A stretch of DNA of 64,000 nucleotides, from contig CP129470.1 in the NCBI GenBank assembly GCA_030583685.1, forward strand, positions 635,412-699,411, written 5' to 3'. The stretch is from Candidatus Dojkabacteria bacterium. GTDB lineage: Bacteria > Patescibacteriota > Dojkabacteria > GCA-002793355. Positions 26,808 to 44,636 of the stretch are shown here, piece after piece; within the stretch, counting starts at the first letter, position 1, and the number at the start of each line of letters is the position of its first letter. Below the pieces are notes generated by a model. The model had not been told where the DNA came from and did no database searches. It saw only the letters and a program-made list of their open reading frames with translations. Both the position numbers and the translations under genes were made by a program.

Positions 26808-26809
26808 CC

Positions 26810-29048: not shown

Positions 29049-29636
29049 ATGAACAATAAAGAAATCGGAGCACGTATTCGTCGTGAGCGTATAAAAAAGG
29101 GCTGGTCACAGCAACAACTTGCTAAACGTGTGGGAGTGACGTGGGAAATGATTAGCAGGTATGAGCGTGGGGTTTCTTCGCCACTAAAACAACTTTTTCC
29201 CATTGCAGAAGCATTAGAATTAAACCCAAATACATTATTTGGAGTGAAAACAGATTTGGGTAACTTTGCCGATGGCAGTGCCGAGTACTTGTCGACTAGA
29301 TTTATCCCAATTCTTTCTGTCATTCCTGTCTCCTCATTTGATTTAGTACAGATGTTGCAAACAACTGACGCGGGAATGCGATTGTTCGACGATGGCCAGC
29401 AGATTGAGAAATTTGGCATTAAACTCGGTCCTGACTCGAAAATTCGCGTTGCGTCCGCTCTCCTTCTTCCAAAAGGAACGTTAATTTGTACTCTTTCGCT
29501 TGCCAATCTTTCTGAAAAATCGTTAGTATTAGTGACACGCCAAGGGTTGATTACCGTTGAACAGTATAATCCACGAGATATGAAAACCTCCGTATTAGCA
29601 AGGGTACTGGAATGGGTAGTCAAATTTGACGACTAA
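29049..29636 (+). CDS. XRE-family helix-turn-helix transcriptional regulator with an uncharacterised C-terminal domain
   Basis: HTH_3 signature IGARIRRERIKKGWSQQQLAKRVGVTWEMISRYERG. The C-terminal 120 aa lack an S24 (GDSM) peptidase motif. Confidence 0.75.
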   Translation: MNNKEIGARIRRERIKKGWSQQQLAKRVGVTWEMISRYERGVSSPLKQLFPIAEALELNPNTLFGVKTDLGNFADGSAEYLSTRFIPILSVIPVSSFDLVQMLQTTDAGMRLFDDGQQIEKFGIKLGPDSKIRVASALLLPKGTLICTLSLANLSEKSLVLVTRQGLITVEQYNPRDMKTSVLARVLEWVVKFDD

Positions 29637-29657: not shown

Positions 29658-30407
29658 GTGACAGATGCATCAACTTTTTGGCAATCGTCCTGCTTGAATA
29701 TTACAAGAGGAAGGAGTATAATAACTATGGGACAGAGCTCGCATACGCCCGCGTACAGTCGTGAAAGTAGGGAACTGGTCGATCGTATAGGAGAGGTTAT
29801 GGCTTTTGAGGATTATCTTACGACAATTTTAGCAATTCCTTTTGAACGTATTAGGTCGAAACTGCAAACTGTTTTAGAATTACGTCAATTGTTTCCAGGC
29901 TATAGACCTGACGATGCTTGGTATCAGGGATCATTGGATGGATTACATGAGTTAAAACGAATGACCTTAGCACAAGGGTTGTTTAAGATTGGTTTTGTCC
30001 GCAACAAAATTGCGAAAAGATACATTAAACCTGCCAAGGATGCGAAGAAAGAGATGATTGTAATGCTGCTATCTCAAAGGAATGCACCAAAAAAGTTGTT
30101 CGAAAGGGATGGGGAATATCAAGGGTTACATGAACTCCTCTGCCGTAATGGGAAACCCTCAATGTTTAAGATGGCTAAAATTCTTTCTGTTGTTGCTCCG
30201 ACTTTGGCAGGGGTGATTCCCCGTGAAGTCATCACCAAAGCGATAGATACGATGCACCATACACTGTATGGTGATGCTCTTCATCAATCAGTTATCGCAA
30301 CTCGTGAAAAAGTGAAGGAATGTTCGGATGTCACCGCTGTTATCTATTGGCTTGCACTGAAAATAGCAGTAAAATTACAAAAGCAAAATGACTCGGCAGT
30401 ACCCTGA
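29658..30407 (+). CDS. hypothetical protein (the true start is probably an internal Met)
   Basis: 249-aa ORF overlapping the next ORF by 20 nt. No motif. Confidence 0.45.
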   Translation: MTDASTFWQSSCLNITRGRSIITMGQSSHTPAYSRESRELVDRIGEVMAFEDYLTTILAIPFERIRSKLQTVLELRQLFPGYRPDDAWYQGSLDGLHELKRMTLAQGLFKIGFVRNKIAKRYIKPAKDAKKEMIVMLLSQRNAPKKLFERDGEYQGLHELLCRNGKPSMFKMAKILSVVAPTLAGVIPREVITKAIDTMHHTLYGDALHQSVIATREKVKECSDVTAVIYWLALKIAVKLQKQNDSAVP

Positions 30408-31224
30408 AGAAGCATTATCAATACGTGAAACAATTGATGTTGGTATTGGAATTAAGGATTTACCTAAAGTATTAGGGGATTTCACTGGTAACTTAGAAGT
30501 GACACTACCAGGGCAGTTATTAAAACACTTTGTCTCAGAACAATTTAAGGTGCATGTCTTGGCGAAATTCGAATTAGTCAAGGGAATACAAGAATTGTCC
30601 GCACTCTTTCCCGGCCTCGGAAATAATATAGAAAGAGAAACGTGGTTACGGAGATTGTTACCTGAAGATGAATGCAAAAGTCTTCAAGAGGCTATTTGTA
30701 ACGGATATTCAACGAATAATTTGTATCGTGCATTTATTGTTGGTAAAACACTTATTCAGTATGCAGATTTTGTTCTTGAAGAGTTCATGGTTCTGTTTGG
30801 AAAAAGGGAACTCCCTCCTGATTTTCCGCAAGGAAGAAAGGGTGAACTTCAAATATTCAAGGAATTATGTAGCCAACGTCGACGAGGAGAGGAAGAAGAA
30901 AAGTTTTCGCAACAAGTCTTTGCGATTATGAAGGATGGAATGTTCTATTTTAATACTATTGACCCGACAAACAGAGAATTTGTTCTGAGAAAATGGAAAA
31001 AAATCCTCATTGCTTATGCGAATAAAGCCTACGAAGGAAGACGAGACGGAAACGACTTACTTTTAGCAAAAACGCAGCAAGAAGTAATTAATAATCTCTC
31101 TCCTGGTGCAGTGTATGTGTATGCAGCAGTCATGTTATGGAAGTATCCGTTACAGTATGATGACCAGCAACCAGTACGGAATCCCTATTCGTGGATTGAA
31201 GAGGCAAGTAAGGTAGGGAATTAA
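30388..31224 (+). CDS. hypothetical protein
   Basis: 278-aa ORF co-oriented with and overlapping the previous gene. No motif. Confidence 0.45.
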   Translation: MTRQYPEEALSIRETIDVGIGIKDLPKVLGDFTGNLEVTLPGQLLKHFVSEQFKVHVLAKFELVKGIQELSALFPGLGNNIERETWLRRLLPEDECKSLQEAICNGYSTNNLYRAFIVGKTLIQYADFVLEEFMVLFGKRELPPDFPQGRKGELQIFKELCSQRRRGEEEEKFSQQVFAIMKDGMFYFNTIDPTNREFVLRKWKKILIAYANKAYEGRRDGNDLLLAKTQQEVINNLSPGAVYVYAAVMLWKYPLQYDDQQPVRNPYSWIEEASKVGN

Positions 31225-31243: not shown

Positions 31244-31272
31244 TTGACACACTTTCAAAACTCCTATACAAT
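31244..31272 (+). promoter_or_regulatory. near-consensus sigma-70-type promoter TTGACA-17-TACAAT
   Basis: TTGACA at 31244-31249, 17-nt spacer, TACAAT at 31267-31272. Confidence 0.6.
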
Positions 31273-31278
31273 CCCCTT

Positions 31279-31484
31279 TATCATGACACAGCCAGTGGTC
31301 AAAACTCAGCCCCAGGATTCCCTGTTGGTTGCGGTTGCACGGTCGTTGTCTTCTCTTATTTCCCCCATGCGTTGGGCAAAGTATCACCTTAGCCTTTCAC
31401 TCTTTGTCCTTTTTATTAAGACATCGGGGGGATAACTTTTATCAAACATAAAAAGAAAGTTAAACCCCCGAAAGGGGGTTTTTT
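31279..31484 (+). ncRNA. candidate small RNA or 5' leader/attenuator of about 200 nt, bounded by the promoter above and an intrinsic terminator
   Basis: No credible ORF: the 63-aa ORF at 31244-31435 starts inside the -35 box. The transcript ends in a strong terminator immediately (18 nt) before the next ATG. Confidence 0.4.
31462..31484 (+). terminator. Rho-independent terminator: CCCCC-GAAA-GGGGG stem-loop followed by TTTTTT
   Basis: aaacccccgaaagggggtttttt read directly. GNRA-type GAAA loop, 5-bp GC stem plus flanking A/U pairs, 6-T tract. Confidence 0.8.
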
Positions 31485-31501
31485 AGTTAATAAACATAAA
31501 A

Positions 31502-32584
31502 ATGAAAACATACCTGGTCCCAGTCCATGTGGACCCAGTAAAACCAATGAATCCGAGTCACTTGAGACATATATTGTATGTGGACTTTCTTTATAGGCAA
31601 TTTAAGGCTCTTGGTCATGACGTGGTGTATTTATACAATAGGTTGTGTTTTGATGTATCAAACCAGGTTATTAAGCTCGCAAAGTTTTTAGAATCTAGGA
31701 AAAGTAAAGTAGAAACCTCACTAGATATTGGGTTGCAGTACATTCAAATGACCTCAGAGAGATTTGAGATTGATGCTGATACCCTCTATGAAGAACGCGC
31801 ACAACAACAAACACACTTACATGGATATCCATATTATTCTATTCTGTTAGAGGATTGGAAGCGTGAGCATGAACTCTTAGACGTATTTGACCCAGGCTTT
31901 AGGTCTCCACGACGAATCAGGTTGACAGTACAAGAGGTGAGTACTGTTTTGAACGATCTTGGAGTGATATTTGACGCACGAAGAATTGATGGGAACATTT
32001 ATCTCGATTTGACTCCAGAAGGATTGCCAATGAGGAAGATTATTGGGGTGAATGAATATAGTTATAACTATTTGTTTATTGTTCTCAGGGAGCTGTTCGA
32101 GTACGTAAAGAAAGGAGATGAAGTATATTTTGTTTTTGATCCTGACTTGAGTTTAGACTATGAGTTGCTGAAGAGAGTCTTGAAAAAATACGGATGTCAC
32201 GTATTCAACCTAACAACCTCTCGGATTTCATTAGGTGGAAAAATACAATCAGCACGTAAAGGTGGATGGCAGGGATATACAACTAAAGATATTTTACATA
32301 GGTATACGCCCCGATTTTCTAGTAATAGCATAGGTCTAGCGATAAGACATTATCTTCTTGCAAAAAATGCAGTACATAAGCAATTTGATTTTTCTTATGA
32401 TGAATTTGAAAAATCGTTTGAGTTTGCACAAGCAGTTGAGAAGAAGTATGGCAGTCTTTCTTTTTCAGAGCTGATTGAAAAAGTCTATTCTCCAAATAGC
32501 GATTATTCTCCACCTTTGACGCGTAGTTTTAATATTTGGAGCACAAAAATTGAGAAAAATAAATCAAACGAGACAAAAAGATGA
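31502..32584 (+). CDS. class-I aminoacyl-tRNA-synthetase-like catalytic-domain protein (CysRS/MshC-type paralog) with a degenerate HIGH motif (HLRH)
   Basis: NPSHLRHILYVDFLYRQFKALGHDVVYLYN aligns with the CysRS/MshC pattern CHIGHaRs...D...RyLr..GydV.yv.N. A possible KMSKS-like stretch GGKIQSARKG appears at about residue 245. 360 aa, about the size of a catalytic core alone, with no anticodon-binding domain. Confidence 0.4.
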   Translation: MKTYLVPVHVDPVKPMNPSHLRHILYVDFLYRQFKALGHDVVYLYNRLCFDVSNQVIKLAKFLESRKSKVETSLDIGLQYIQMTSERFEIDADTLYEERAQQQTHLHGYPYYSILLEDWKREHELLDVFDPGFRSPRRIRLTVQEVSTVLNDLGVIFDARRIDGNIYLDLTPEGLPMRKIIGVNEYSYNYLFIVLRELFEYVKKGDEVYFVFDPDLSLDYELLKRVLKKYGCHVFNLTTSRISLGGKIQSARKGGWQGYTTKDILHRYTPRFSSNSIGLAIRHYLLAKNAVHKQFDFSYDEFEKSFEFAQAVEKKYGSLSFSELIEKVYSPNSDYSPPLTRSFNIWSTKIEKNKSNETKR

Positions 32585-33237
32585 AGGTGTCAAATCTGTA
32601 TCTCAATCAAGCGAAATTACAAGAGTACTATATGAGTCGAGTACAAGCAGCAGAATATGTTCCCGGAGAAGAGAGCAAAAATGCGATTGTAGTAATTTTA
32701 TTTGAGTATACTTTTGAAGAGTATGCACACGCATTGTTTAAATTGCATGAATCATTATTGGATGAAGAAAAAACAGTATGGCTTCAAAATTTTACGGAAA
32801 CTCATTTTCTTTTAGGGAATCCGCGTACTGTTTGTCAGAAAGATCCTGAAGACTTTGTTTATATTTCTGACGCGATTGCAGTTTCTCGACTTCTGCCAAG
32901 TAAGGTCGCAAAAGGGTACGTCTCCCGATGTCCTCGGTATTCACCAATCAAATCAAGAGTCATGCAATACGCTGCCATTTCTCAGAAGGAATCAGAAAGA
33001 CTTGAAGTGGTATTGTGTCGTTCAGATATTCCCGAAGAAATAGTGCTTATTGATTTATCTCATGTTGTCAATGAATACTTGATTAATAACCCTCTCGAGA
33101 TTGGAAAAGTGGTTAGTATTAAGTTCTTATCTGAACGAGAACAAGGTGAGGATGTGGTTTCATGGGACAGAACTCGAGTTGTATTCAATGCAGATGTAAA
33201 AGAATATGAATTAAGAGCATATATACGTGAATTCTAA
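32581..33237 (+). CDS. hypothetical protein
   Basis: 218 aa, overlaps the neighbours by 4 and 11 nt (operonic). No motif. Confidence 0.45.
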   Translation: MKVSNLYLNQAKLQEYYMSRVQAAEYVPGEESKNAIVVILFEYTFEEYAHALFKLHESLLDEEKTVWLQNFTETHFLLGNPRTVCQKDPEDFVYISDAIAVSRLLPSKVAKGYVSRCPRYSPIKSRVMQYAAISQKESERLEVVLCRSDIPEEIVLIDLSHVVNEYLINNPLEIGKVVSIKFLSEREQGEDVVSWDRTRVVFNADVKEYELRAYIREF

Positions 33238-33865
33238 TACAAAAAAATTCATAGTCCTGCTTGGCGGTGACGGAGCAGGGAAAACGTCGGTAATCAAAAA
33301 TTTGGGGCTGGATTGTTGTAGTGTCATTTCGTATTCTGAAACTCCGGTTTCCAATCGAATAGAATCTATGTGTGAAATTGAAAAGATTGTTCGCAAGGAC
33401 CTCCTCCCTCAATTTTCTACCATGTCTCCGCAGTTTAGAGTTGCAGTCTACAACTTATTTGTTGCCTATATGGCCGAGTCAATTTCTCATGAAATATGTC
33501 GAAACAATGTCATTTGCGACTCATATTATTACAAGTTCATGGCAAAGGAAATTTTATCAGGTGTCGATGCGAACCAGTTGCAGATTTGGAAAACACTCCA
33601 AAGGCCAGATGCCGTTGTGTATTTAGATGCTGATCCACGTCTTGCTTACAGAAGGATAAAAAAAACTCGTGCTATTCAAAGTAATGAAAAATTCGTAGAC
33701 GATCGAGAGGAAGAAGGATTTATTCGGTTACAAAAACGATTAAAAGAACAAATGATTGAGATTATTCGAAAATCCAATATCCCCCTCAGTCTCGTGGACG
33801 CGAACAAACCATTGAAGGATGTTTGTCTGCAAGTTCAAAATAATATTATTGAAATCTTAAAATGA
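33227..33865 (+). CDS. thymidylate-kinase-family (Tmk-like) nucleoside monophosphate kinase paralog
   Basis: Walker A KFIVLLGGDGAGKTS aligns with Tmk KYIVIEGLEGAGKTT. ICDSYYYKFMA aligns with the DRH/Y..S.AYQ region. The lid PDAVVYLDADPRLAYRRIKK aligns with PDLTLYLDV.PEV.LKR. The DR(Y/H) motif is replaced by DSY. Confidence 0.6.
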   Translation: MNSNTKKFIVLLGGDGAGKTSVIKNLGLDCCSVISYSETPVSNRIESMCEIEKIVRKDLLPQFSTMSPQFRVAVYNLFVAYMAESISHEICRNNVICDSYYYKFMAKEILSGVDANQLQIWKTLQRPDAVVYLDADPRLAYRRIKKTRAIQSNEKFVDDREEEGFIRLQKRLKEQMIEIIRKSNIPLSLVDANKPLKDVCLQVQNNIIEILK

Positions 33866-34638
33866 ATTTGGGGTTAAAAGACAAAAAAATTGTTGTTACC
33901 GGTGGTGCGAGTGGGATAGGAAAGGCAATCGCACTCGATCTCTGTAGAGAAGGAGCTTTCCCTATAATTATTGATCGTGATGAGTCTGCACTTTTACGTC
34001 TTAGGAAGGAGATAGGTGATGCAAGGATAAAAACATTTGTCTGTGATTTGTCTGATTGTTTAGAAACAAAACAGGTAATTTCACAGATTAATAAAATATT
34101 CGGAGATGAAATCTATGGCTTGGTTAACAATGCTGGAGTAAACGACGGGGTTAGTCTTTTGGACGGAATTTCCGCATTTCAGGCTTCATTACAAAGAAAC
34201 TTGATTCACTATTTTCAAATGACCAGTGGGTTGATGGAAAGTATCAAAAAAAATCAAGGGTCAATACTCAATATCTCTTCAAAAGTTGCTGAAACGGGGC
34301 AAGGAGGAACATCAGGATATGCTGCTGCAAAAGGAGCAATTAATGCGTTAACAAGAGAGTGGGCACTTGAGCTTGCGCAGTATGGAGTAGATGTAAATTG
34401 TATCGTTCCCGCTGAAGTGATAACACCTCAATATGAAAAGTGGATAAAAAACGAATCTGATTCTCGAAAAGTTCGGAACATACTTCGTAAGATTAACCTG
34501 GGAAAGCGTCTTACCAGACCAGAAGAAGTAGCAGATTTCGCAATATTCTTGCTGTCACAAAGAAACACACACACAACGGGGCAGTTAGTCTTTGTGGATG
34601 GTGGATATACGCACTTAGATGATTCAACGTCAGTATGA
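33862..34638 (+). CDS. short-chain dehydrogenase/reductase (SDR)
   Basis: TGGASGIGKAIALDL (TGxxxGIG), NNAG, and the catalytic YAAAKGA (YxxxK). 258 aa. Confidence 0.85.
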   Translation: MNLGLKDKKIVVTGGASGIGKAIALDLCREGAFPIIIDRDESALLRLRKEIGDARIKTFVCDLSDCLETKQVISQINKIFGDEIYGLVNNAGVNDGVSLLDGISAFQASLQRNLIHYFQMTSGLMESIKKNQGSILNISSKVAETGQGGTSGYAAAKGAINALTREWALELAQYGVDVNCIVPAEVITPQYEKWIKNESDSRKVRNILRKINLGKRLTRPEEVADFAIFLLSQRNTHTTGQLVFVDGGYTHLDDSTSV

Positions 34639-35297
34639 AAGAGAAGTTTATGACAAAAATCAGAAAGTTTGCAAAAGAGTGCATGGGAAAAGTTCCAGCG
34701 CACGGTTATGACCATGCTTTCCGAGTCGGAATAATGGCCCGGAATATTGCACGAAAGGAAAGCTTAAAAAAATTATACCTGTATGAAATCGCAGGTCTTC
34801 TGCATGATATTGGGTTGGATTTTCCCGACAGGTCAAAACACGGGGAGATTGGAGCAAAGAAAGCTTACAGCTTCTTGAGACAAGAGACGGATTTGTCTAT
34901 CACAGAATTATCTGAAATTACGTATGCGATTTCTTATCACAACCGGAAGCTATCAGCACCAAAGCATTCTCTTATACTTGATGTTCTTGCAGACGCTGAT
35001 ACGTTAGATTTATTGGGGGCAATAGGGATTTGGAGAGGAATCCAATCTCGTGCAGATGCTAATCTCCCTTCTCCGAGACAAGTAGCAGCTGCGATGAATC
35101 GATTTGAAGAGTATAACAAGAGCCGGAAAGATAAACGCGAAAACAACACGCATAGTATTGCTGAACAAATTAATTTTCAGATTCAATCTGCCAAGATAAT
35201 TACAACAAGTACGGGTAAAAAGATGGCAGAACCTTTACTTGCAACAATGAGGCATTTCCGATACATGATTGTCGAAGAGTTAACCCAATCTAAGTAG
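34635..35297 (+). CDS. HD-domain metal-dependent phosphohydrolase
   Basis: H...HD motif: HGYDHAFRV ... LLHDIGL. 220 aa. Confidence 0.65.
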   Translation: MKEKFMTKIRKFAKECMGKVPAHGYDHAFRVGIMARNIARKESLKKLYLYEIAGLLHDIGLDFPDRSKHGEIGAKKAYSFLRQETDLSITELSEITYAISYHNRKLSAPKHSLILDVLADADTLDLLGAIGIWRGIQSRADANLPSPRQVAAAMNRFEEYNKSRKDKRENNTHSIAEQINFQIQSAKIITTSTGKKMAEPLLATMRHFRYMIVEELTQSK

Positions 35298-35301
35298 CAT
35301 T

Positions 35302-35502
35302 ATGAACGAATTTCTTGATTCACACATCCCTTTGTGGAAGTATAAGAAGAAAGATTACTTCTTTGAAAAGTATCTTTTGAGAATTGGAAACGCCGAAAAG
35401 CTCTTTTGTGGTGGAGTTTTAGTTCAGGTACGACAAGGTAGGAATGAAACAGTTTACAGAAACTTATATACGGTATTTTTGACAGAATATGGTGAAATAT
35501 AA
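35302..35502 (+). pseudogene. decayed duplicate of the N-terminus of the amidohydrolase gene at 36736
   Basis: MNEFLDSHIPLWKY...CGGVLVQVRQGRNETVY against MNIIDTHIHLWKY...SGGVLVQARQSGEETEF of the ORF at 36736-37581. The metal-binding His is replaced (HIHLW to HIPLW) and the copy is truncated at 66 aa. Confidence 0.5.
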
Positions 35503-36739
35503 AGAAAATATGACTTCACAGGGCGGAATTGGCATAATTCCGGAGCAAGTGCTTTTGGCGCTTTTGGAGTATTCTCTTAATAGAAGTGTATTGACTAATA
35601 AGGCAGGTCTGATGGTTAAGATGAGTTATGGGAATGAGAGGGTATTTGCTGGTCGATATGGATTGCTTGCTGAGTGTCCTTTTGATACAAGATTCCCAGT
35701 GGGTTCTATCTCAAAGGTTAAGGTGTTAGGAGAAATTCTTAGCCTCGTATCAGAAGGCAAAGTAGTGCTAAACGAGCAGATTAAGGCCTACTTACCATGG
35801 TTAGCTGACTCAGCTGTTGGACAAAAACAAATTTTCACAATTTTTAACCATAGTACTGGACTATCAAGAGATGGTCTCTGGGGGAATGGTATAACACCAG
35901 AATATCCATCTGAAGTTGAGTTGAGGGCATATGTACGGGAATGCTCACTTGTTGAGGACATTGTGTGGAAGTATTCAAACATCGGCTTCGAGATAGCTCG
36001 TATGATTATTGAAAGTGTAACAGGGCGAGTGTATCCAAACTCTTTGTCAAGGAAAAACGATTTGCAAGTCTCTTTGTATGGTTTTGCTGATGAGGGAAGT
36101 TTGATTGCAGTACCTCATGAAGATCCCAAAGCTATGACTGCTTCTATTGGGCAATACATGTCTCTCGATGAAATTATTACGCTTTACCAATCTACAGTGC
36201 AGAAATATTCGAAGTTCATCTTTGATGAGCAATATCGAGTCGAACGTGCACCAGAACCTGTTTGGTTACTTGGTGTTTCTGAATGGCAAGATGTAAAGGA
36301 GGAGGTATATCATGGTCACCAAGGAAATGGATATGGATACTCTGTAAAAGTCGCAGTGACGCAGAGCTTAGAACACAGTGTCGTGATTTTCAGTAATGTC
36401 ATAAAGTACCCAGTGCATGAGATTTCAAACAAGCTTCTGCGAATCGCTAAACTGCTTTCTGCTACAAAACTAAAGAGCGCAGTAGGCTGGAAGGTGACGA
36501 AATTTCAGAATCGTACCTTAGCTCTCCTTGTTGCATATAACAGTGAGAGTGCGTTCTTCTTTCGTGAGGGAAATCATACTTTTTACGATTGGGTGATGCA
36601 GGCGGATGGGGATATTACCACTGGAGCTCTCATAAATAGAGGAGGAACTAATGCATTTATAGGAGAAATTGCAACAATTAATCAGGAGGAATTGACGATT
36701 GGTCCGTATAAACTTGAGAAAAAGAATAAGTTATTATGA
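35489..36739 (+). CDS. beta-lactamase-fold serine hydrolase (class C beta-lactamase / D-aminopeptidase / esterase superfamily)
   Basis: SxxK active-site motif in the typical context FPVGSISKVKVLGEIL. 416 aa. Confidence 0.6.
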   Translation: MVKYKENMTSQGGIGIIPEQVLLALLEYSLNRSVLTNKAGLMVKMSYGNERVFAGRYGLLAECPFDTRFPVGSISKVKVLGEILSLVSEGKVVLNEQIKAYLPWLADSAVGQKQIFTIFNHSTGLSRDGLWGNGITPEYPSEVELRAYVRECSLVEDIVWKYSNIGFEIARMIIESVTGRVYPNSLSRKNDLQVSLYGFADEGSLIAVPHEDPKAMTASIGQYMSLDEIITLYQSTVQKYSKFIFDEQYRVERAPEPVWLLGVSEWQDVKEEVYHGHQGNGYGYSVKVAVTQSLEHSVVIFSNVIKYPVHEISNKLLRIAKLLSATKLKSAVGWKVTKFQNRTLALLVAYNSESAFFFREGNHTFYDWVMQADGDITTGALINRGGTNAFIGEIATINQEELTIGPYKLEKKNKLL

Positions 36740-37581
36740 ATATCATTGATACACATATTCATCTTTGGAAGTATATTCCTGAGCAGTATTCATGGATTAC
36801 GGAGGAGATGAAAGTACTTAAGCAGGATTTCCTGTATTCACAGTATAAACAGCAAGTAAAGAGTTCTGGAGGAGTCCTTGTTCAAGCCAGACAGTCAGGG
36901 GAGGAGACTGAATTTCTGTGTGGTATCGCAAATCAGTATAATGATGTTATCGCAGTTGTTGGTTGGATGGATTACCAAGAGGATGAGCCTTCACAAATGA
37001 TAGCAAGAATTAAAGAACAACCACAATATGCAAAACTGACTGGTTTTCGACATTTAGTTCAAGATGAGCCTGATTTGAGATTTATGCTTCAGGAAAAGTT
37101 TAGATCATACCTTGAGCTACTTGCTAAGGAGAACTATACCTATGATGTTCTTATTCGCTCCCATCAAATGAAACAGTTTCTTGAGTATTTGCATACAACC
37201 GAGACTAATAAACAACCTGTGCTGGTTTTGGATCATATTGCAAAACCTGTTATTGGGGGACCTAAAGAATTATTTAACAAATGGCAACAGGACATACGGG
37301 AAATTGCGAAACACGAGAATGTGAATTGTAAGATATCTGGACTCTTAACAGAAGCGAGTACCGGTTCAACTCCAATTTTCACTCCATATCTTGAGGTAGT
37401 GCTTGAAGCTTTCGGAGTCGACCGACTCGTTTTGGGATCTGATTGGCCAGTGTGTACTTTGAGAGGGTCGGGGACTCAATCACTTTCGGTTTCTGTAGAT
37501 TTCTTGCAAGCCAATCTTGTTCAATCTGATTTAGAAAAAATACTTAATTTAAATGCCATACGGATATATGGAAAAAATTAG
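36736..37581 (+). CDS. TIM-barrel metal-dependent amidohydrolase (Amidohydro_2 / COG3618-like)
   Basis: N-terminal metal-binding motif IDTHIHLW. 281 aa. A paralogous fragment lies at 35302. Confidence 0.6.
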   Translation: MNIIDTHIHLWKYIPEQYSWITEEMKVLKQDFLYSQYKQQVKSSGGVLVQARQSGEETEFLCGIANQYNDVIAVVGWMDYQEDEPSQMIARIKEQPQYAKLTGFRHLVQDEPDLRFMLQEKFRSYLELLAKENYTYDVLIRSHQMKQFLEYLHTTETNKQPVLVLDHIAKPVIGGPKELFNKWQQDIREIAKHENVNCKISGLLTEASTGSTPIFTPYLEVVLEAFGVDRLVLGSDWPVCTLRGSGTQSLSVSVDFLQANLVQSDLEKILNLNAIRIYGKN

Positions 37582-39304
37582 TAACGTAATCGCTGCGCCA
37601 CAATTATCCGACTATTTTGTTTCTCATGCTGAAATTGAATATCTTTATGATGGAGAGGGAGAAAATTCTGGTGCTATAGATCCTAATGCTCTATCTGCGG
37701 GAGGTGGACCATTTATTTTTCGAATGATTTTAAGATTTGTCGATACAAGTCGGGCCGTTGCATCAGAAATTCCTAATAGATTGCAACAAACATTAAAGCA
37801 AGTTCTGCCTTCGATGGGAAATCAAGCGATTCAAGAGTTGAACTCGCAAATTGTTAGTCATTTGGAGCGGATGGGTATAAATTCTCTAGAGTCATTCGAA
37901 TATCTTGAGAAGAAAATTATCGAAAAGATGCCTGATATTCTTGAACTTTACAACAATACAGCACTGATTCAACGTTTGAACGGATTGTTTGAAACGGAAT
38001 ATGGAATCGTTTGGTTCGCACCAAAATTGTGGAGGGAATATAAACTGCGCCAGATAGAGCTTTTCTTAAAAGCAGTGAGACAAGGGAAGCAAATAGGTCC
38101 TTTTGCAGCTGATTTTAACAAAAATATGAAAGCGTATCTTGATACTCTTTGCCAAACGCTTGAACCAATTCCACCCGAGTATGTTACATTTGATGTTGAA
38201 TGGGAAACTGACTTTAGTTACTACGTTGCCTATAAAAAGAGTCAGGAAGGTGTTATTATACGAGTATTGATGGATTTGCACTCCAATAGTGGCTTGTTTG
38301 CTGAGATCCCATTACAAGCAATCCTTGCTCCATACGGAAAGAAACGATACAACGATGTTTATGGACTACTACTTGAATCTGATGCAGGGGTACAGGAAAG
38401 GAACGGTTTTAGATATACGAATCATAAATGTAAGATCATAATTGAGGAAGGTGGGCGAAAAGAACTTTGTTTCTCTTCTGGCATCATGATTAAGCTTGCA
38501 GATTCTGTTACAACAACACGCGAGGCTATCCAAGGAGATTTTAAGCAATATGCATATCTTTGGGAATGGTTCGATAAATCAAAGTTTGATTACTCACGGG
38601 ATAGTCATCGAAAGATGTATCTCTCAAGTTTTTTAAATGCAAAATCTGGATTTTTCGAAATTTTCAAGTATGCTCAGGAAAAATATGGTATTTCGTTGAA
38701 GTATCCAAAAACGAATGTGTTTGGGAAGAAAAGTATTCCAAATATGGACGGTTACTCTGAGTTTGTCAATATTAAAGATGGTGGCTGGTGTTCTACTGGA
38801 GGAAAACATGTACACCTTGTTAAAAAGGAGCACCTTAAGAGAGATGTTGAGAAATTACATTATCCTGGTTACCTTGTGCAGATACATATACCTTCACTTC
38901 TTTTTATTCATGAGGATGGAACAAAATATCATGGACACGCACGAAAAGTTTCGATTGTCAATCGAAGTGGTGACATTGTTCATCTCGGTTTCTTCTTGCG
39001 TATGGTTGAAGAGAGTAAAGGAAACAGTTCAGGTTACCGAGCTTATCGTATGGTATTTAATGATGAAGGGAATTTCATTGTTTCGTATAGAACTGGGGGA
39101 GAACCACAAACATACTTGTCGCTTGAGGAAACAAAACTCAAGCCATTAGTAAGCGATTTGAAAGCATTTCTAATTGAGGTAAAACAGGAATGGCATAAAC
39201 AAATTTATGCATTAAATAAATTTGTTGCAGAAGAAGATGTGCCAGCTTTTGTCGCACAACTCGTAAAAGATGGTAAACTGTCAAAGAGATATTTAATAAG
39301 TTAA
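37553..39304 (+). CDS. large hypothetical protein (583 aa) with no recognisable motif
   Basis: Long uninterrupted ORF co-oriented within the enzyme cluster. Contains the Cys/His-containing stretch GGWCSTGGKHVHLV...HYPGY...HGH, but no assignable family. Confidence 0.55.
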   Translation: MPYGYMEKISNVIAAPQLSDYFVSHAEIEYLYDGEGENSGAIDPNALSAGGGPFIFRMILRFVDTSRAVASEIPNRLQQTLKQVLPSMGNQAIQELNSQIVSHLERMGINSLESFEYLEKKIIEKMPDILELYNNTALIQRLNGLFETEYGIVWFAPKLWREYKLRQIELFLKAVRQGKQIGPFAADFNKNMKAYLDTLCQTLEPIPPEYVTFDVEWETDFSYYVAYKKSQEGVIIRVLMDLHSNSGLFAEIPLQAILAPYGKKRYNDVYGLLLESDAGVQERNGFRYTNHKCKIIIEEGGRKELCFSSGIMIKLADSVTTTREAIQGDFKQYAYLWEWFDKSKFDYSRDSHRKMYLSSFLNAKSGFFEIFKYAQEKYGISLKYPKTNVFGKKSIPNMDGYSEFVNIKDGGWCSTGGKHVHLVKKEHLKRDVEKLHYPGYLVQIHIPSLLFIHEDGTKYHGHARKVSIVNRSGDIVHLGFFLRMVEESKGNSSGYRAYRMVFNDEGNFIVSYRTGGEPQTYLSLEETKLKPLVSDLKAFLIEVKQEWHKQIYALNKFVAEEDVPAFVAQLVKDGKLSKRYLIS

Positions 39305-39316
39305 TAAAACTTTCTG

Positions 39317-40651
39317 ATGAAACTTTATGAAAATTACCAAAAATCGTTACAGGAGCTGGTTGCATTACAATCCATTTCTACTGACCCAACTTTTGCGCAG
39401 GGCATTGAGGACACCGTTCAGTGGCTCGTTTCGTACTTTGAAAAAAATGGCTTCTCTGTAGAGCGAGTAGATGGATATGGCAACCCGATTGTTGTCGCAC
39501 GGTATACCGTTGCGCCTGAAAAAGAAACCTATTTTGTGTACGGACACTACGATGTACAGCCTGCTTCTCAGGAAGACGGTTGGGAGAGTGATCCTTTCTC
39601 TTTGACGGAGCGTGATGGAAAGTTATACGGACGCGGAGTTGTTGATAATAAAGGGCAATTTATGGTGCATTTAACCAGTATTGTTGCTTTGATTGAAGAG
39701 GGAAAACTTGAAAAGAATGTTGTGTTTGTTGTTGAAGGAGATGAGGAAACCGGTGGCGAAGGCATCACGAAACTTTTTGAGGCACGACCCGAGTTATTCA
39801 AGGCAGATCAATATATTATTTCAGACGGAGAAATGCCGTACAAACCTGTAATCACTGCTTCTTTCCGAGGGACCTTTAATATCACCGCAAAAATTACGAC
39901 TGCTGCAAATAACTTGCACTCTGGTCTGTATGGCGGCGCAGCACCAAGTGCCACAGTTGTTGCGTCAAAACTGGTTGCGGGCATGTATGACGATGAGAAC
40001 AGACTGGCGATTACTGGATTCTATAATAACGATTTGGTCGCAGATGAAGTTGAAATGCAACTTTGTCGTGACATGGATGCAGTGAAGACAGCAACTCTTG
40101 AGCAAACTGGCGTGAAAAAATGGTTTACTGGCCCAAACAACTCATTCTGTGAAGTCGTTGGCTTTACCACTATGGTGGTTCCTTCTGGAATTTCAAGTGG
40201 CTATACCGGCAGTGGTTACTCAAACATTGTGCCTGCCTCTGCGCTGATCAAGATGAATGTCAGAATCGCAGCAAATCAGACGGTTGAACAAGTGAAAACG
40301 TTGCTTGAGCACTACTTTGCAAAAAATACTCCAGAATACGCAACAACGGAGCTGATTGAAATGCAGAGCAATAATGAACCAATCAAGGTGAATATTAACT
40401 CAGATATGCACAAAAGAACTATTCAATTGCTCGAGGAAGTCTATGGAGACAAGGTATTGATTGACTATTGTGGTGCAACTCTTCCGGTGGTAATTGATAT
40501 CAAACGCGTTTTTGGTGCTGATCCCGTACTGATTTCTTTGGCGAATGATGATTGTAATATGCATGGAGTCAATGAGAATTACGATATCGAGCTCTTGAAG
40601 AAAGGATTGGAGTTTTCTTACCGATTGTTTGGCGGGAATAGTAATGGGTGA
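39317..40651 (+). CDS. M20-family metallopeptidase (dipeptidase/ArgE/DapE-like)
   Basis: Metal-binding motifs GHYDVQPA, VDNKGQ and EGDEETGG. 444 aa. Confidence 0.75.
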   Translation: MKLYENYQKSLQELVALQSISTDPTFAQGIEDTVQWLVSYFEKNGFSVERVDGYGNPIVVARYTVAPEKETYFVYGHYDVQPASQEDGWESDPFSLTERDGKLYGRGVVDNKGQFMVHLTSIVALIEEGKLEKNVVFVVEGDEETGGEGITKLFEARPELFKADQYIISDGEMPYKPVITASFRGTFNITAKITTAANNLHSGLYGGAAPSATVVASKLVAGMYDDENRLAITGFYNNDLVADEVEMQLCRDMDAVKTATLEQTGVKKWFTGPNNSFCEVVGFTTMVVPSGISSGYTGSGYSNIVPASALIKMNVRIAANQTVEQVKTLLEHYFAKNTPEYATTELIEMQSNNEPIKVNINSDMHKRTIQLLEEVYGDKVLIDYCGATLPVVIDIKRVFGADPVLISLANDDCNMHGVNENYDIELLKKGLEFSYRLFGGNSNG

Positions 40652-41111
40652 GTATTTAGAAGGTAGTTTCTTCTCTCGAGTTCATGAGATTGAAAGGTAT
40701 GAAGGAAGTCAGCTTGTGCTATGCTCGATGTCAGAACAAAACAGGTTTACCTTAGCACTTACACAGAAAACAGGTAAAAAACACCTTATTGCCGCCAAGG
40801 TCGTAATTGAGGTCTCCGCTCCGAGTTCTTTTCCTATACCACAAGACCATCTAAGAAGCTTACAAATGTATAATAGAATAGCTAGCTATGCTTTTAAATC
40901 GTATAAAATAGAGAAAGGGTATGGTAGCTATTTGTGGAAAAAAGCAGATGAGTGGGTGAAAATGCAACGCCTTCCTGTATTTATTGAAGATACTAATCCT
41001 ATGTCATCAGCCGGATGGACAAGTGCAATGATAATAAAGTTGCATCCTAACGCTCAATATCTTGGAAAGAATGAAAGAGGAAACCACACATGGATATACA
41101 ATAAGAAATAA
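40629..41111 (+). CDS. hypothetical protein
   Basis: 160-aa ORF overlapping the M20 gene's 3' end. No motif. Confidence 0.35.
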   Translation: MAGIVMGEYLEGSFFSRVHEIERYEGSQLVLCSMSEQNRFTLALTQKTGKKHLIAAKVVIEVSAPSSFPIPQDHLRSLQMYNRIASYAFKSYKIEKGYGSYLWKKADEWVKMQRLPVFIEDTNPMSSAGWTSAMIIKLHPNAQYLGKNERGNHTWIYNKK

Positions 41112-41127
41112 AATTTGAACTCGTCTT

Positions 41128-42567
41128 TCAATATTCCCCCTTCTCACTCAAATACTGCTGTAAATAGTACCCTGTTTTTGTTAAATAGCCACGATTGTAG
41201 AGTTCTTGCGCGCGGGTAACACCGATATAGCGAATATGCCAGGGTTCGTACGTGTAGCCGGTGTATGGTTCTGAGCCGTTGGGATAGGAAATGATTAATC
41301 CGAATTTGTGTGCGTTATTGTGTAAGTAGGTGTAAACCGGTGTGTTTTTTGAGTCATAAAAATTGCATGGATAATTGCAGCCCATGATATCGACTGTTGT
41401 GCCTAATTGATGTTCAGAATGACCAGGTTTTGCGGAATACGTATTCGCTTTTACGACAGCCTGTTCGTAGGTGAGTCCCTTTTTTCTCTCATTATTGACG
41501 TACGAATTGAAGAGCGATTGTTGTGTTGTATACGACCGATATGAAGACGAAACTCGCATAACAGAAATCCCATTCGCTTTTGCATCAGCAAAAAGTTTTT
41601 GCAACGCGGTTCTCGTGTCAGGAGTAACATAGCCACCGCCGGTAACACCGGTTGCAACAACATAGGGAATATAGGATGAAGGCAGTGCGAAGTTCTTGCT
41701 GACGGGGGCAAGCCAGCAATTCTTACAACTAAGCACGCCACTGGTTGGTTTCGGCTTGGCGCAAAGTGATTGCAATGCTGTGAGTACGTTTCCTAATCGA
41801 TATTGCTGTTGATCTTTCAGGTAGTATAGGGGAATAGTCGCTTTTGTTGTGCAGTTTTTCTGCTGCAGGGTTACGGTCCCAATCTGAATCAAAAATTCTG
41901 ATTCTTCGCCGAGTGCAAGCGAGACTGATGCAGTGTGTTCCAAACGATACGCAAGGTCAGAGATTTTGAATATCGAGGCAAGTGTTCCAAAGTCTGTCGC
42001 AAGCAGGAAAGATTCTGCAGTATTCTGTTGTTTTTTCGACAGCGCAGTTTTCAGAGAATTCCAGTTGTCAGTTAGTTGTTTGGTCAGTTCTGCGTGTACT
42101 TTTTCACCAATAAATCGTTTTTCGTGCAACGGAGCGGTGAGTATCCGAGTTGAGTGATCATAGTACGCGGTTATTTTACCGTTTACCTGAACTTCGCGCA
42201 CTTCGACTTCGGCAAAACCATCGTGCCCCGCGGGAAAGGTATATTCCCACTCGGCAGGAAAGGTCGGATCAGTGCTTGTTTCAACGGTAAAGGGGAGGGC
42301 AACTTCTTTTGTTTCGACAATCGTCTCGGTAATCGTTAAACCGAGACTCTTTTTTTGCAATGCAGTTTGGTTTGGCGCTTCACCGTACAACAGAGTCAGC
42401 GCGTGTTGTCCGTTCTCAACAGAGGCAAATGAACCGGTGCGTAACTGATGCCACGCAATACCTTTATGGAGCGGCGAGGTCGGCCACTCCCACAAGAACA
42501 TGCCCAACGAACCAATGGTTGCGATACCAATCAGGATAGGCAGGAGTACTTCTCGCAACTTCATCAT
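41128..42567 (-). CDS. membrane-anchored VanY / M15-family D-alanyl-D-alanine carboxypeptidase
   Basis: N-terminal TM. C-terminal M15 signature SAKPGHSEHQLGTTVD ... EPWHIRYIG. Confidence 0.75.
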   Translation of the reverse strand: MMKLREVLLPILIGIATIGSLGMFLWEWPTSPLHKGIAWHQLRTGSFASVENGQHALTLLYGEAPNQTALQKKSLGLTITETIVETKEVALPFTVETSTDPTFPAEWEYTFPAGHDGFAEVEVREVQVNGKITAYYDHSTRILTAPLHEKRFIGEKVHAELTKQLTDNWNSLKTALSKKQQNTAESFLLATDFGTLASIFKISDLAYRLEHTASVSLALGEESEFLIQIGTVTLQQKNCTTKATIPLYYLKDQQQYRLGNVLTALQSLCAKPKPTSGVLSCKNCWLAPVSKNFALPSSYIPYVVATGVTGGGYVTPDTRTALQKLFADAKANGISVMRVSSSYRSYTTQQSLFNSYVNNERKKGLTYEQAVVKANTYSAKPGHSEHQLGTTVDIMGCNYPCNFYDSKNTPVYTYLHNNAHKFGLIISYPNGSEPYTGYTYEPWHIRYIGVTRAQELYNRGYLTKTGYYLQQYLSEKGEY

Positions 42568-42598
42568 GGTGCATTATAGCGGAAATGGGCAGAGGAAT

Positions 42599-43627
42599 TT
42601 AATCGTTAAGTGTATCGGAAATTCTCGCCAGGTAATCTTCTAATGCTCGATGGTTCTGATGATCTTGTATGTATTGTTGCAATTCAAGCTGCGTGTGTAT
42701 CAATCTAAATCCTCGCGGAATGGAATAAACACTGGAATTTGTCGGAAAATAAAGAAAATGAAAAGGTAGTTTTCTGTCAATAAAATGTGACTTTTCTGCA
42801 GGTCGAGGATTCTCAAGGAAGAACGTTTGTAAACGCTGTAGCGTTGAAATGAGGAGTGATCGAATGATTTCGTCATGTTCAAAAACCATTTGTCGTTTTG
42901 TCCACGCAACAGGACTTGTTTCTGCTTGTGCCTTTGCTCTTTCGACGCGAGTCTGTTTATCAGAATCCATAACAACAAAAAAACGAGGTGACCATGTCTT
43001 CAAATTGACAATAATCAGCATAAAGAGTGGTTCGGGTAAAGATATTTGCCCTGATTCTTTGTCAATTTCATAGGTTTTGGTAAATGCGCAGAGACCAACA
43101 AGAGTTTGTAGCAATCCGCCAATTGCAATAAAGTCGGCGCTGAGTGGTTTTGGCATTGTCTCCAGTTTTTTTTGCATGGTAAACGCTCCTCGAATACTTG
43201 CGTAGATATATTCTTCCCAGAGTACCGCAGCTTTTTCTTCGTCAGAAGAGTAAGGAGAGATTCGAGCCCTGTATTGTTTGTTACCAAAAAGTTCTGATGT
43301 TGGCCGATGTTCCATATATCGAAGTGATTCTTTAAGATATTCTGCGGTCGTAGTTTTTGCCGCAGCGCCAGGTCCAAGAATCATGACTCCGTTTCCAGGA
43401 TGAATTGTGGTTGTATCCTGCTTGATTGCGGTAACTTCTTGTTGGAGTAACTCAAGTCCAAAGGTAATTCTTCCTCGCAGTGTTCGTGGTGTTCCCATTT
43501 CCTGAGGAGCAAGTAGCTCTATTGCCACGTTTGCGGCAACTTCTTCTGGTTGAAAAACGAGCGGTCCAATTTTCTGACGGATTTCTGGAGCGGTTGCAGG
43601 AGGACCTTTTGCGGTTACTTGGTACAT
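42599..43627 (-). CDS. P-loop NTPase-fold protein (kinase / zeta-toxin-like Walker A) of unknown function
   Basis: Walker A MILGPGAAAKTTTAEYL. 342 aa. Immediately follows the gene at 43629-44636 (1-nt gap). Confidence 0.5.
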   Translation of the reverse strand: MYQVTAKGPPATAPEIRQKIGPLVFQPEEVAANVAIELLAPQEMGTPRTLRGRITFGLELLQQEVTAIKQDTTTIHPGNGVMILGPGAAAKTTTAEYLKESLRYMEHRPTSELFGNKQYRARISPYSSDEEKAAVLWEEYIYASIRGAFTMQKKLETMPKPLSADFIAIGGLLQTLVGLCAFTKTYEIDKESGQISLPEPLFMLIIVNLKTWSPRFFVVMDSDKQTRVERAKAQAETSPVAWTKRQMVFEHDEIIRSLLISTLQRLQTFFLENPRPAEKSHFIDRKLPFHFLYFPTNSSVYSIPRGFRLIHTQLELQQYIQDHQNHRALEDYLARISDTLND

Positions 43628-43628
43628 A

Positions 43629-44636
43629 CTACGTTGCTGAAATCAATTTGTATCCTTTTCCTGAGATTGTTCTGAGCATATACTTCTCTTGGATCGCCTT
43701 GCCAAAACGAGACATCGTTTTGTAGACTGCCCACAGGGAATAGGGCTTTTGCTGGTTCAAATGTGCGTGAATTGCTTCTTTGGAAAGGAATTTGCCAGGT
43801 TGTTGCAGAAAAAGCTCGAGAAGCTCTTGATACAGCGGTGAGAGCTGGTCCAATGTCGGTTGAGCAAGAGATTTGACAAACGCTTTGAGAAGAGGAATGG
43901 TAATAACTCCGTTTTCCGTTGTTAATCCAATCCTTTCGGTTGTCATGCGAGAAAGTGTGCGATACTCAAGCTCAAGCTGTAATAGTTCTGCGCGAATGGT
44001 CGGTTCATGAAGGAGTTTTGGAATAGTGAGAGGATGCTTTTGTTGCGCAAGCAGGAAAAGTCGCTTCGTTAGGCCGATATGTCCGTTTGTTAAGGAAAGG
44101 ATGGTTTTTCTTGCTCCTGGCGGTAATTTTTTTCCGTACAGCTGTTCTCGTACGTCGAGCAAGTGTTTCGAATTTTCTTTGGACAATGGTTTGCGAGTGA
44201 GAATCACTTCAACAGGGGTAGAGGTGTGGGAGAATACTTTTTCAGGAGTATCAAAGTATGATGCCTCAAGAATAATGAGCGAGAGAAAAGTATTCGATTT
44301 GTTCCGCATATACCGGGTAAATGCGCTTGTAAAGGACTTTTCTTTACGGAAATACCAGGGAACAAGAAGCAGTTTTTGACGCGTGCTTTCTTTCTTTTGG
44401 ACAAGATCAAGCGTTTGCGCAGTAAAGGAATCGTCGTGGTCGTAATATACGTCATACTCGCCTGAATGCTGAAAAATTGAGTATAAATAGTCGAGAAAAC
44501 GTCGGTCTCCCATCTTATAGGCAGAACAAAACGCGACACATTGTTTCCGTTGTAGTGCCTCTTGAACGAGTGTTACCTCCTCCGAAAAGTAGGGAAGTCC
44601 TTGAAGGTAGAGGGTTTGATAGGTTTGTGTGTCCAA
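43629..44636 (-). CDS. protein with a C-terminal OmpR/PhoB-type winged-helix DNA-binding domain and a non-canonical N-terminal domain
   Basis: C-terminus SLWAVYKTMSRFGKAIQEKYMLRTISGKGYKLI matches the OmpR wHTH (TVDVHI.RLRKKL...I.TVRG.GYRL). The N-terminal 230 aa lack receiver D/D/K residues and a Walker A. Confidence 0.5.
   Translation of the reverse strand: MDTQTYQTLYLQGLPYFSEEVTLVQEALQRKQCVAFCSAYKMGDRRFLDYLYSIFQHSGEYDVYYDHDDSFTAQTLDLVQKKESTRQKLLLVPWYFRKEKSFTSAFTRYMRNKSNTFLSLIILEASYFDTPEKVFSHTSTPVEVILTRKPLSKENSKHLLDVREQLYGKKLPPGARKTILSLTNGHIGLTKRLFLLAQQKHPLTIPKLLHEPTIRAELLQLELEYRTLSRMTTERIGLTTENGVITIPLLKAFVKSLAQPTLDQLSPLYQELLELFLQQPGKFLSKEAIHAHLNQQKPYSLWAVYKTMSRFGKAIQEKYMLRTISGKGYKLISAT

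Follow-up and report, generated by a model that had tools for sequence, protein, structure and literature searches.

The window analysed here is a 64,000-nucleotide stretch of a Candidatus Dojkabacteria bacterium genome (contig CP129470.1, positions 635,412 to 699,411 of the forward strand), and our subject is a unit of nine plus-strand open reading frames (ORFs) at 31502-40651 that opens with a gene for an aminoacyl-tRNA synthetase (aaRS)-like protein. Comparison with related loci suggests that the unit is a mosaic of separable modules behind a shared leader, and that its first three genes (A, D and T) represent a small-molecule cassette also found in other phyla.

Layout of the unit and its leader

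The nine tightly packed genes described in a first-pass annotation, made from the sequence without database searches, were confirmed; adjoining ORFs either overlap by 4-29 nt or are separated by gaps of 4-12 nt. ORF1 (A, 31502..32584) encodes a 360-amino-acid (aa) class Ia aaRS-like catalytic core, resembling arginyl-tRNA synthetase (ArgRS), of an unnamed family. ORF2 (D, 32581..33237) encodes a DUF6182 protein (Pfam, E 2e-7), and ORF3 (T, 33227..33865) a P-loop kinase paralog of thymidylate-kinase (Tmk) fold (Pfam Thymidylate_kin, E 4e-13). They are followed by a short-chain dehydrogenase/reductase (SDR) of the L-fucose-dehydrogenase type (S, ORF4, 33862..34638), an HD-domain phosphohydrolase (H, ORF5, 34635..35297; Pfam HD, E 2.8e-10), a beta-lactamase-fold serine hydrolase (B, ORF6, 35489..36739; Pfam Beta-lactamase, E 5e-17, residues 43-188), an Amidohydro_2 lactonase resembling L-fucono-1,5-lactonases (L, ORF7, 36736..37581; Pfam, E 6.7e-28), a 583-aa protein without a recognized fold (U, ORF8, 37553..39304) and an M20-family dipeptidase-like metallopeptidase (M, ORF9, 39317..40651; Pfam Peptidase_M20 and M20_dimer). 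A terminator scan predicted no plus-strand terminator-like site from 31481 to 42003, and within the unit the number of promoter-like matches did not exceed the shuffle expectation (26 versus 35.9 expected). Taken with the tight junctions, these results indicate that the nine ORFs would most simply be read as a single transcript.

Related loci were drawn from a large protein database (L001 and L002), JGI metagenomes (L003 and L004), a Streptomyces plasmid (L005), GTDB genomes (66 loci, L006-L071) and context look-ups (L072-L080). Conservation extends over the 280 nt upstream of A in lineages that share just 42-46% identity in the A protein. This region contains the promoter and terminator that the first-pass annotation had placed before the cluster; the XRE regulator that it also named was recovered further upstream. 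The best promoter match in the region is sigma-70-like, TTGACA-17-TACAAT (31244..31272, plus strand), agreeing at 11 of 12 positions; L002, L006 and L004 keep the two hexamers and the distance of 10 nt between the -10 element and the ATG. That ATG opens a 50-aa small ORF (31283..31435, plus strand), a candidate regulatory leader peptide, which remains open at 50-52 aa in all five sequences compared (three Dojkabacteria lineages) and always has its single Trp 19 residues before the stop. A conserved island within it, CCATG(C/T)GTTGG, encodes M-(R/C)-W. Between lineages the peptides are 23-29% identical and third-position bias is absent, so the argument that it is coding depends on the retention, length and spacing of the ORF and on a few positions. 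A well-conserved protein or a precursor of a ribosomally synthesized and post-translationally modified peptide was rejected at this level of identity, and the small ORF is treated here as a regulatory ORF or RNA element.

Two hairpins follow on the same strand. An antiterminator (31425..31470; RNAalifold consensus) has predicted free energies of -8 to -18.8 kcal/mol in the five sequences and is mutually exclusive with an intrinsic terminator hairpin and T-run (31462..31487; 8-bp stem with 5 GC pairs, 15 nt before the start of ORF1; -7.5 to -14.7 kcal/mol). The stop codon of the small ORF lies within CGGG(A/G)nnTAACT in the 5' arm of the antiterminator, and this block pairs with AGTTAAACC(T)CCCG, which serves both as the antiterminator's 3' arm and as the terminator's 5' arm. 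A compensatory change extends across all three arms (G/C/G in the window, A/U/A at the matching positions in the others), and the terminator is kept, with compensatory change, in L002, L006, L004 and L077.

These comparisons mark the leader as a candidate translation-coupled attenuator. A ribosome reaching the small-ORF stop would mask the antiterminator arm and transcription would stop; a ribosome held upstream of the stop would allow the antiterminator to form and the operon to be read. As the leader precedes S-H-L-U-M in L077 and A-D-T-M in L002, it would govern the locus, not a single module. No Rfam family reached its gathering score in the leader at 31273-31490 (best sub-threshold scores, Trp_leader 21.6 versus 41 and Phe_leader 23.6 versus 55), and a T-box or riboswitch upstream of ORF1 was rejected on that basis.

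The XRE-family helix-turn-helix (HTH) regulator (29049..29636, plus strand) matches PHROG repressor families (E 1e-12). A homologue is found directly upstream in L006 (E 2.5e-65) and an HTH_3/HTH_31 gene occupies the matching place in L077, suggesting that Dojkabacteria relatives keep the regulator ahead of the unit. In the window, two uncharacterized proteins (249 and 278 aa, 29658-31224) are encoded between the XRE gene and the leader; elsewhere they were found only in the 98%-identical L001. The XRE gene of L006 stands directly before the leader, and L002 and L077 carry a different 273-284-aa gene at this place that shares only a short PGAxYxYA motif.

An ArgRS-like core and its partners across phyla

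An exhaustive profile search returned 84 cluster representatives of the A family among 1.84 billion proteins. Full-length members are mostly 350-410 aa long and stand alone, and no canonical synthetase was found among them. Neither Pfam nor NCBIfam holds a model for this family. The structure of A was predicted with AlphaFold2 from 42 sequences, replacing a poor 3-sequence model (pLDDT 57). The predicted structure has a Rossmann-fold catalytic domain with class I topology, and its best structural matches are ArgRS and cysteinyl-tRNA synthetase (CysRS). ArgRS is nearest, with CysRS and MshC ranked lower, and the family alignment revealed no conserved zinc-binding Cys/His cluster of the CysRS/MshC kind; the CysRS/MshC-like core first proposed for ORF1 was accordingly replaced by an ArgRS-like one. 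When four A-family members were scanned against Pfam, the only match had an E value of 0.097, so that sequence methods barely reveal an aaRS, and Add-1, DALR or other anticodon-domain matches were absent. Most of the ArgRS chains matched are 559-628 aa long, compared with 360 aa for A. The model and these scans agree with the earlier description of ORF1 as a stand-alone class I aaRS-like core, apparently without a full anticodon-binding domain.

The signature motifs of class I enzymes are present in altered form. At the HIGH position, the window reads H-L-R-H and the family as a whole P-T-K-P-L-T-P-S-H-[LVI]-[KR], with P-x-K-P-x-x-P-S-H-x-[KR] invariant. The first His is found in 71/71 sequences, as is a K/R two positions further on, in place of Gly. 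At the second-His position, 51 sequences have Gly and only 5 have His, the second His being retained only by the Dojkabacteria clade. At the KMSKS position, after the last Rossmann strand, the consensus is S(66)-A(59)-R(62)/K(9)-x-G(71)-G(61)-W(71), which is not a canonical KMSKS; we take this S-A-R-x-G-G-W loop to resemble the MSTR-type variant of ArgRS.

D scores 31.1 bits against Pfam DUF6182 (PF19680; gathering threshold, 25), and its Streptomyces orthologue in L009 scores 352.8 bits. W67, T72, G79, H161, E165 and R199 are invariant in D, and H161, E165 and R199 could be catalytic; a sequence-profile search of the Protein Data Bank (PDB) gave no significant relative. T passes the family-level Pfam model (49.8 versus 27) and falls below the TIGR00041 cut-off (53.6 versus 83.25 bits). 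Its P-loop reads G-G-D-G-A-G-K-T in the window, with G, D, G and K invariant in 55/55 members (family motif GxDxAGK[ST]). The D-R-Y of PDB 2plr aligns with D-S-Y in T, the arginine being Ser in 53/55 members; D-R-[YHF] is replaced by a family-wide D-S-Y-Y-Y-K motif, and the LID arginines are retained. The first reading of T as a thymidylate-kinase paralog lacking DRY/H therefore holds for the fold and the missing motif, and not for a nucleotide role, to which no link was found. Likewise, we found no pointer to the nucleotide-derived substrate or conjugate that had been suggested for the cluster. That A and T are accessory rather than housekeeping genes is supported by the rarity of the A family and by the absence of A from the syntenic site in L077.

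Co-occurrence was assessed over 71 loci using iterated seeded hidden Markov model (HMM) searches instead of all-against-all ORF clustering, which merged unrelated high-GC genes. In 71/71 loci A has a DUF6182 neighbour on its own strand, downstream of it in 65, and in 55/71 a Tmk-like gene lies on that strand no more than ~5 kb away. Other partners are a GH3 adenylating enzyme (53 loci), an LCM-type methyltransferase (42), an FAD enzyme (36) and AfsA with a HAD phosphatase (23). The order AfsA-HAD-T-GH3-LCM-FAD-A-D was confirmed by Pfam in Streptomyces sp. NBC_01006 (L009). Elsewhere, the genes are arranged as A-D-T-GH3 (L037 and L044), T-GH3-A-D (L012), A-D-T-LCM (Sphaerisporangium), GH3-x-A-D without T (Lysobacterales) and, beside polyketide synthase/non-ribosomal peptide synthetase genes, A-D-x-(GH3-LCM fusion) (L075). 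An Actinophytocola locus (L047, 4149-13134) carries a phosphoenolpyruvate (PEP)-utilising enzyme, UbiA, T, D, x (an uncharacterized 285-aa protein), A, AfsA and KASIII. Two natural fusions, one joining A to an AfsA domain (P0034, 712 aa) and one joining GH3 to the LCM methyltransferase (L075, 10526-13009, 827 aa), provide Rosetta-stone hints that these enzymes act in one pathway.

A finding that these genes are never co-localized in related genomes would have counted against the first-pass annotation. A and T in fact occur together in many genomes from several phyla and, in actinomycetes, among biosynthetic genes. Gene-neighbourhood conservation, the check proposed for the whole cluster, was found across phyla for A-D(-T) and not for the nine-gene set. 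A-D-T thus appears to be a minimal, stripped-down form of an uncharacterized small-molecule cassette that is also present in Streptomyces natural-product gene clusters.

Separable modules within the unit

The gene order of the window, XRE-X1-X2-leader-A-D-T-S-H-(fragment)-B-L-U-M, is shared with L001. L003 and L006, whose A proteins are 43% identical to that of the window, have XRE-leader-A-D-T-S-H-L-U-M. L002 is reduced to leader-A-D-T-M, and L077, at the same chromosomal site, has XRE-x-leader-S-H-L-U-M without A-D-T. U-M alone is found in L078 and L080, HD-U-M in L079, and S-H-L-U-x-A-D in L073 (GC content 35%, A 29% identical). The A-D-T of L002 without S-H-L-U, the S-H-L-U-M of L077 without A-D-T and the isolated U-M pairs show that the modules are separable, and we conclude from this comparison that the unit is probably a mosaic of three, A-D-T, S-H-L and U-M, and not one conserved pathway. 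The leader and M20 gene of L002 and L077 (6443-11709) are 85-89% identical in DNA, yet enclose alternative cargo (A-D-T versus SDR-HD-lactonase-U), which argues that one or the other module was recently gained or lost. Between the window and L003, protein identity is 43% for A, 29% for D, 38% for T, 61% for S, 51% for H, 45% for L, 40% for U and 75% for M. Only in Dojkabacteria-type loci does A have homologues of S, H, L, U and M as neighbours. Judging from L073, modules 1 and 2 tend to co-locate in candidate-phyla genomes, so that they may have a loose functional link.

For the second module, the reductase and TIM-barrel amidohydrolase that had been proposed to tailor amides or peptides resemble a sugar-oxidation pair instead. 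The only NCBIfam match of L is L-fucono-1,5-lactonase NF052480 (217.4 bits, below the 400 cut-off), and its only PDB relatives are 4dlf, 4dlm, 4dnm and 4do7 (E 2.5e-35), which we take to be structures of the lactonase BmulJ_04915. S scores 328.8 against the curated equivalog model for L-fucose dehydrogenase, NF052481, above the cut-off of 300, and its best PDB match is 4gkb/4glo/4gvx (E 1e-72), 4gvx being the L-fucose dehydrogenase of Burkholderia multivorans (PMC11293516). S and L are thus predicted to form a pair of the L-fucose-dehydrogenase/L-fuconolactonase type, L-fucose being the predicted kind of substrate. H accompanies both in L003, L073 and L077.

B, in which SxxK (SISK) and YxN (YSN) motifs can be read, has a homologue only in L001 among the loci compared. 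Directly upstream of it, a 66-aa ORF (35302..35502, plus strand) is a degenerate copy of the N-terminus of ORF7 (BLASTP, E 6e-8), and in L003, L073 and L077 the lactonase directly follows the HD gene. The fragment, an apparent insertion scar, and the HD-lactonase adjacency of the relatives indicate that B was inserted, probably late and in this lineage, between these two genes with duplication of the 5' end of L.

U is 100% identical to a deposited hypothetical protein, QY312_03235, of Candidatus Dojkabacteria bacterium, which bears out the patescibacterial origin assumed in the first-pass annotation. It had no match in Pfam, NCBIfam, PADLOC, PHROGs or the PDB, including a profile search of the PDB. 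The possibility that it is a cryptic GH3 enzyme was rejected (hhalign probability 0.05%; no match to the GH3 HMM). Nine relatives were found, with invariant motifs such as GGWCSTGG and HGHxRK. An M20 gene directly follows U in L003, L077, L078, L079 and L080, in contexts that are otherwise unrelated; U and M20 are therefore a recurrent gene pair. M is the most conserved gene of the unit, at 73-75% identity to L002 and L003 versus 29-46% for A, D and T.

The window comes from a chromosome and carries alaS, nusA, pnp and mutS outside the unit. No ORF1 relative was found on viral contigs and PHROGs returned only generic Tmk, HD and XRE matches, on which grounds a phage origin of the unit was rejected. 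Among the known anti-phage systems in PADLOC, A, D and U had no match and T only weak ones (PDC-M51B, E 2e-7; VakA, 3e-6); as these are at the level of generic P-loop/kinase-fold similarity, identity with a defence system was also rejected.

Several neighbouring genes deserve mention. Downstream, on the minus strand at 41128-44636, lie genes for a VanY-type D-Ala-D-Ala carboxypeptidase that carries a G5 domain, a protein of 342 aa in which a P-loop-like GPGAAAKTT can be read, and one of 335 aa whose C-terminal domain is of the OmpR type; these are syntenic with L003, L006 and L077, so that this flank is stable and the upstream cargo variable. A 671-aa protein at 45284-47299, with an N-terminal methylase-like region and a D12-class N6-adenine DNA methyltransferase domain, falls in a stretch of lower GC content (0.36, 46-50 kb). 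The 757-aa protein at 54343-56616 (minus strand) is related to PEP synthase, PigC and rifamycin phosphotransferase (PPDK_N/PEP-utilising type), a class that also flanks the trio in L047 and is here 14 kb away. Upstream, at 25542-28810, an FtsA/PilM-like ATPase precedes a 666-aa protein with a Baseplate_J-like segment, a pairing kept in L001 and L077 and an odd one, given that the chromosome has no further phage genes close by. The alanyl-tRNA synthetase at 4872-6683 (minus strand) is only 603 aa long (PRK01584 short form) and is missing the usual C-terminal extension.

Interpretation and comparison with known systems

We lean towards an overall explanation in which a single transcription unit holds separable modules behind a shared leader, with A-D-T as a small-molecule cassette. 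The analysis shows the gene content, the fold of A, the family assignments, the co-occurrence statistics, the separability of the modules and the conservation of the leader; the catalytic steps that follow for A, D, T and U, and the regulatory logic described above, are inferred. A, with ATP, would adenylate an amino acid or other carboxylate and, together with its obligate partner D, pass the acyl group to a non-tRNA acceptor, D contributing acceptor binding or the transfer step. T would phosphorylate the acceptor or the product, a small molecule bearing a phosphate or hydroxyl group; on the model of Tmk and the salinipostin enzyme Spt6, it would most plausibly take a phosphomonoester to the diphosphate. 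S and L would oxidize an L-fucose-type sugar to the lactone and open it to the aldonate, with the HD phosphohydrolase attached, and the U-M20 pair would finish with a peptidase or deacylase reaction. The acceptor used in actinomycetes probably has a relation to AfsA/GH3 chemistry. In Dojkabacteria, the aldonate or lactone from S and L is a candidate, one that, judging from L002, would not be required. A more specific proposal, possible but doubtful, is that A and DUF6182 form an ArgRS-derived two-component ligase that places an amino acid onto a phosphorylated acceptor supplied by the Tmk-like kinase. The trio would then be an ancient, horizontally mobile 'aminoacyl-phospho' tailoring unit of actinomycete butenolide-type clusters and of ultra-small Patescibacteria, placed in the latter under a Trp-containing arrest-peptide attenuator of a kind not described before.

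Several observations weigh against a small-molecule cassette acting as its own module. Across the A family, the Gly and the second His of a canonical HIGH motif are not kept, and neither phmmer nor a four-sequence profile search of the PDB detected an aaRS, so only the fold and the position of the motifs suggest adenylation by A. Because the searches that gave the 71 loci started from A and one peptide pattern, and Streptomyces predominates among them, the counts measure association and not independent events. The GH3, LCM, FAD, AfsA and HAD profiles match no ORF in the window; given the missing GH3, AfsA and LCM partners, the trio may act differently in Dojkabacteria. Literature searches on DUF6182, on GH3 with AfsA and on aaRS-like proteins with GH3 and Tmk found no papers in the literature searched, which gave no substrate or product for any member of the A, D or U families. 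Finally, reading frames overlap in the window, so that all modules may be translated together, in keeping with a joint function.

An alternative, which we judge unlikely, is that A-D-T is an inducible resistance or immunity module that inactivates an external toxin by aminoacylation and/or phosphorylation and is induced by ribosome stalling on the leader peptide. Drug-inducible attenuators of resistance genes combine a leader ORF with antiterminator/terminator architecture, which the leader resembles; A-D-T is also patchily present among close relatives, T has its weak PADLOC matches, and biosynthetic gene clusters commonly carry self-resistance genes. However, no genes of the cassette other than A and D are invariant, and the A-AfsA fusion fits a core biosynthetic role better than accessory resistance. 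The leader is not specific to A-D-T, standing before S-H-L-U-M in L077 where A-D-T is absent, and the PADLOC scores of T reflect no more than generic P-loop similarity.

The pathway envisaged in the first-pass annotation, in which all nine genes make or detoxify an amino-acid-nucleotide conjugate, is quite improbable. It would account for the overlapping stops and starts, the tight packing under one common leader with no internal terminator, and the dNMP-kinase fold of T, and S-H-L-U and A-D are adjacent again, in another order, in L073. The loci that separate A-D-T, S-H-L-U-M and U-M speak against it, as do the insertion of B and the sugar dehydrogenase and lactonase types of S and L. In more than 60 loci outside Dojkabacteria the partners of A-D-T are GH3, LCM, FAD and AfsA, with no nucleotide enzymes, and the DRY arginine is missing across the T family. 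What stands of that proposal is the conserved accessory ligase-kinase core; the single nine-gene pathway does not stand, and no link to nucleotides was found. It is hardly credible that ORF1 is a divergent housekeeping ArgRS or CysRS and ORF3 the organism's dTMP kinase, clustered incidentally: ArgRS and CysRS are the top structural matches and patescibacterial proteins are often divergent and shortened, but A is 360 aa long versus about 560-630 aa for ArgRS chains, lacks Add-1 and DALR by Pfam, has just 84 representatives, always has a DUF6182 partner, is missing at the syntenic site in L077 and is also found in Streptomyces, which has a full housekeeping gene set, while T is under the TIGR00041 cut-off with DSY in place of DRY.

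Few stand-alone aaRS paralogs are known to join amino acids to acceptors other than tRNA, and those discovered so far, such as MshC and the hydrazine synthetases, each opened new chemistry. The recruitment of an aaRS paralog as a small-molecule ligase is already known; what is new is a family derived from ArgRS, its constant association with DUF6182, the companion gene of Tmk type and a cassette that crosses phyla. The A family marks a recurrent cassette in dozens of Streptomyces and other actinomycete genomes, in Lysobacterales and in candidate-phyla bacteria, offering natural-product chemists a concrete three-gene unit and placing DUF6182 in a context. Patescibacteria are generally credited with minimal biosynthetic capacity, and one would not expect them to have a cassette in common with antibiotic producers, behind a conserved candidate attenuator. 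The mosaic also warns that a tightly packed operon in a reduced genome need not be a single pathway.

Compared with ArgRS (class Ia; PDB 2zue/2zuf and 4q2t), A is ~200-270 residues shorter than the chains matched, has no detected Add-1 or DALR domain, has HIGH cut down to S-H-x-[K/R] and is always paired with DUF6182. It differs from the stand-alone class I aaRS paralogs MshC, GluQRS/YadB and BshC, which ranked below ArgRS, in its gene partners and in having no zinc-type Cys/His cluster; MshC acts alone, whereas A always has a DUF6182 neighbour. The methionyl-tRNA synthetase (MetRS)-like domain of PyrN (PDB 9l8v), presumably of the Spb40/FzmP type of hydrazine-forming enzymes, belongs to another class Ia subfamily, and its partner is a fused cupin where that of A is a separate DUF6182 protein; an FAD enzyme accompanies A in just 36/71 loci and is absent from the window. 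Like the trp, phe, his and drug-inducible leader-peptide attenuators, the window leader combines a short ORF with mutually exclusive hairpins and a stop inside the antiterminator arm. Its ORF is, however, long (50-52 aa) and has one invariant Trp in place of a run of regulatory codons.

For the sugar-oxidation pair, ORF4 passes the equivalog cut-off and has as its best PDB match the sequence of B. multivorans BmulJ_04919 (L-fucose dehydrogenase), while ORF7, compared here with BmulJ_04915 (L-fucono-1,5-lactonase), is under the lactonase cut-off (217 versus 400). The window unit has no fuconate dehydratase or downstream catabolic genes, and an HD phosphohydrolase stands between the two genes.

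The salinipostin (spt) gene set includes Spt1 (PEP-utilising), Spt6 (a nucleoside diphosphate kinase, NDK), Spt7 (UbiA) and Spt9 (AfsA) (PMC8209734), and Spt6, which has a nucleotide-kinase fold, phosphorylates a butyrolactone phosphate to the diphosphate in vitro (10.1101/2020.10.11.335315). Among known enzymes compared, this is the nearest precedent for the role suggested for T. Identity of the window unit with this cluster was rejected on the gene list: the unit carries no AfsA, UbiA or PEP-utilising gene, and in the described spt clusters an NDK (PF00334) is present and genes of the Tmk-like, DUF6182 and aaRS-like kinds are absent (PMC8209734). Only the L047-type loci, from a distant actinomycete, are spt-like; there, Spt1-like, Spt7-like and Spt9/AfsA-like genes surround T-D-x-A, and the Tmk-like kinase stands in place of the NDK Spt6.

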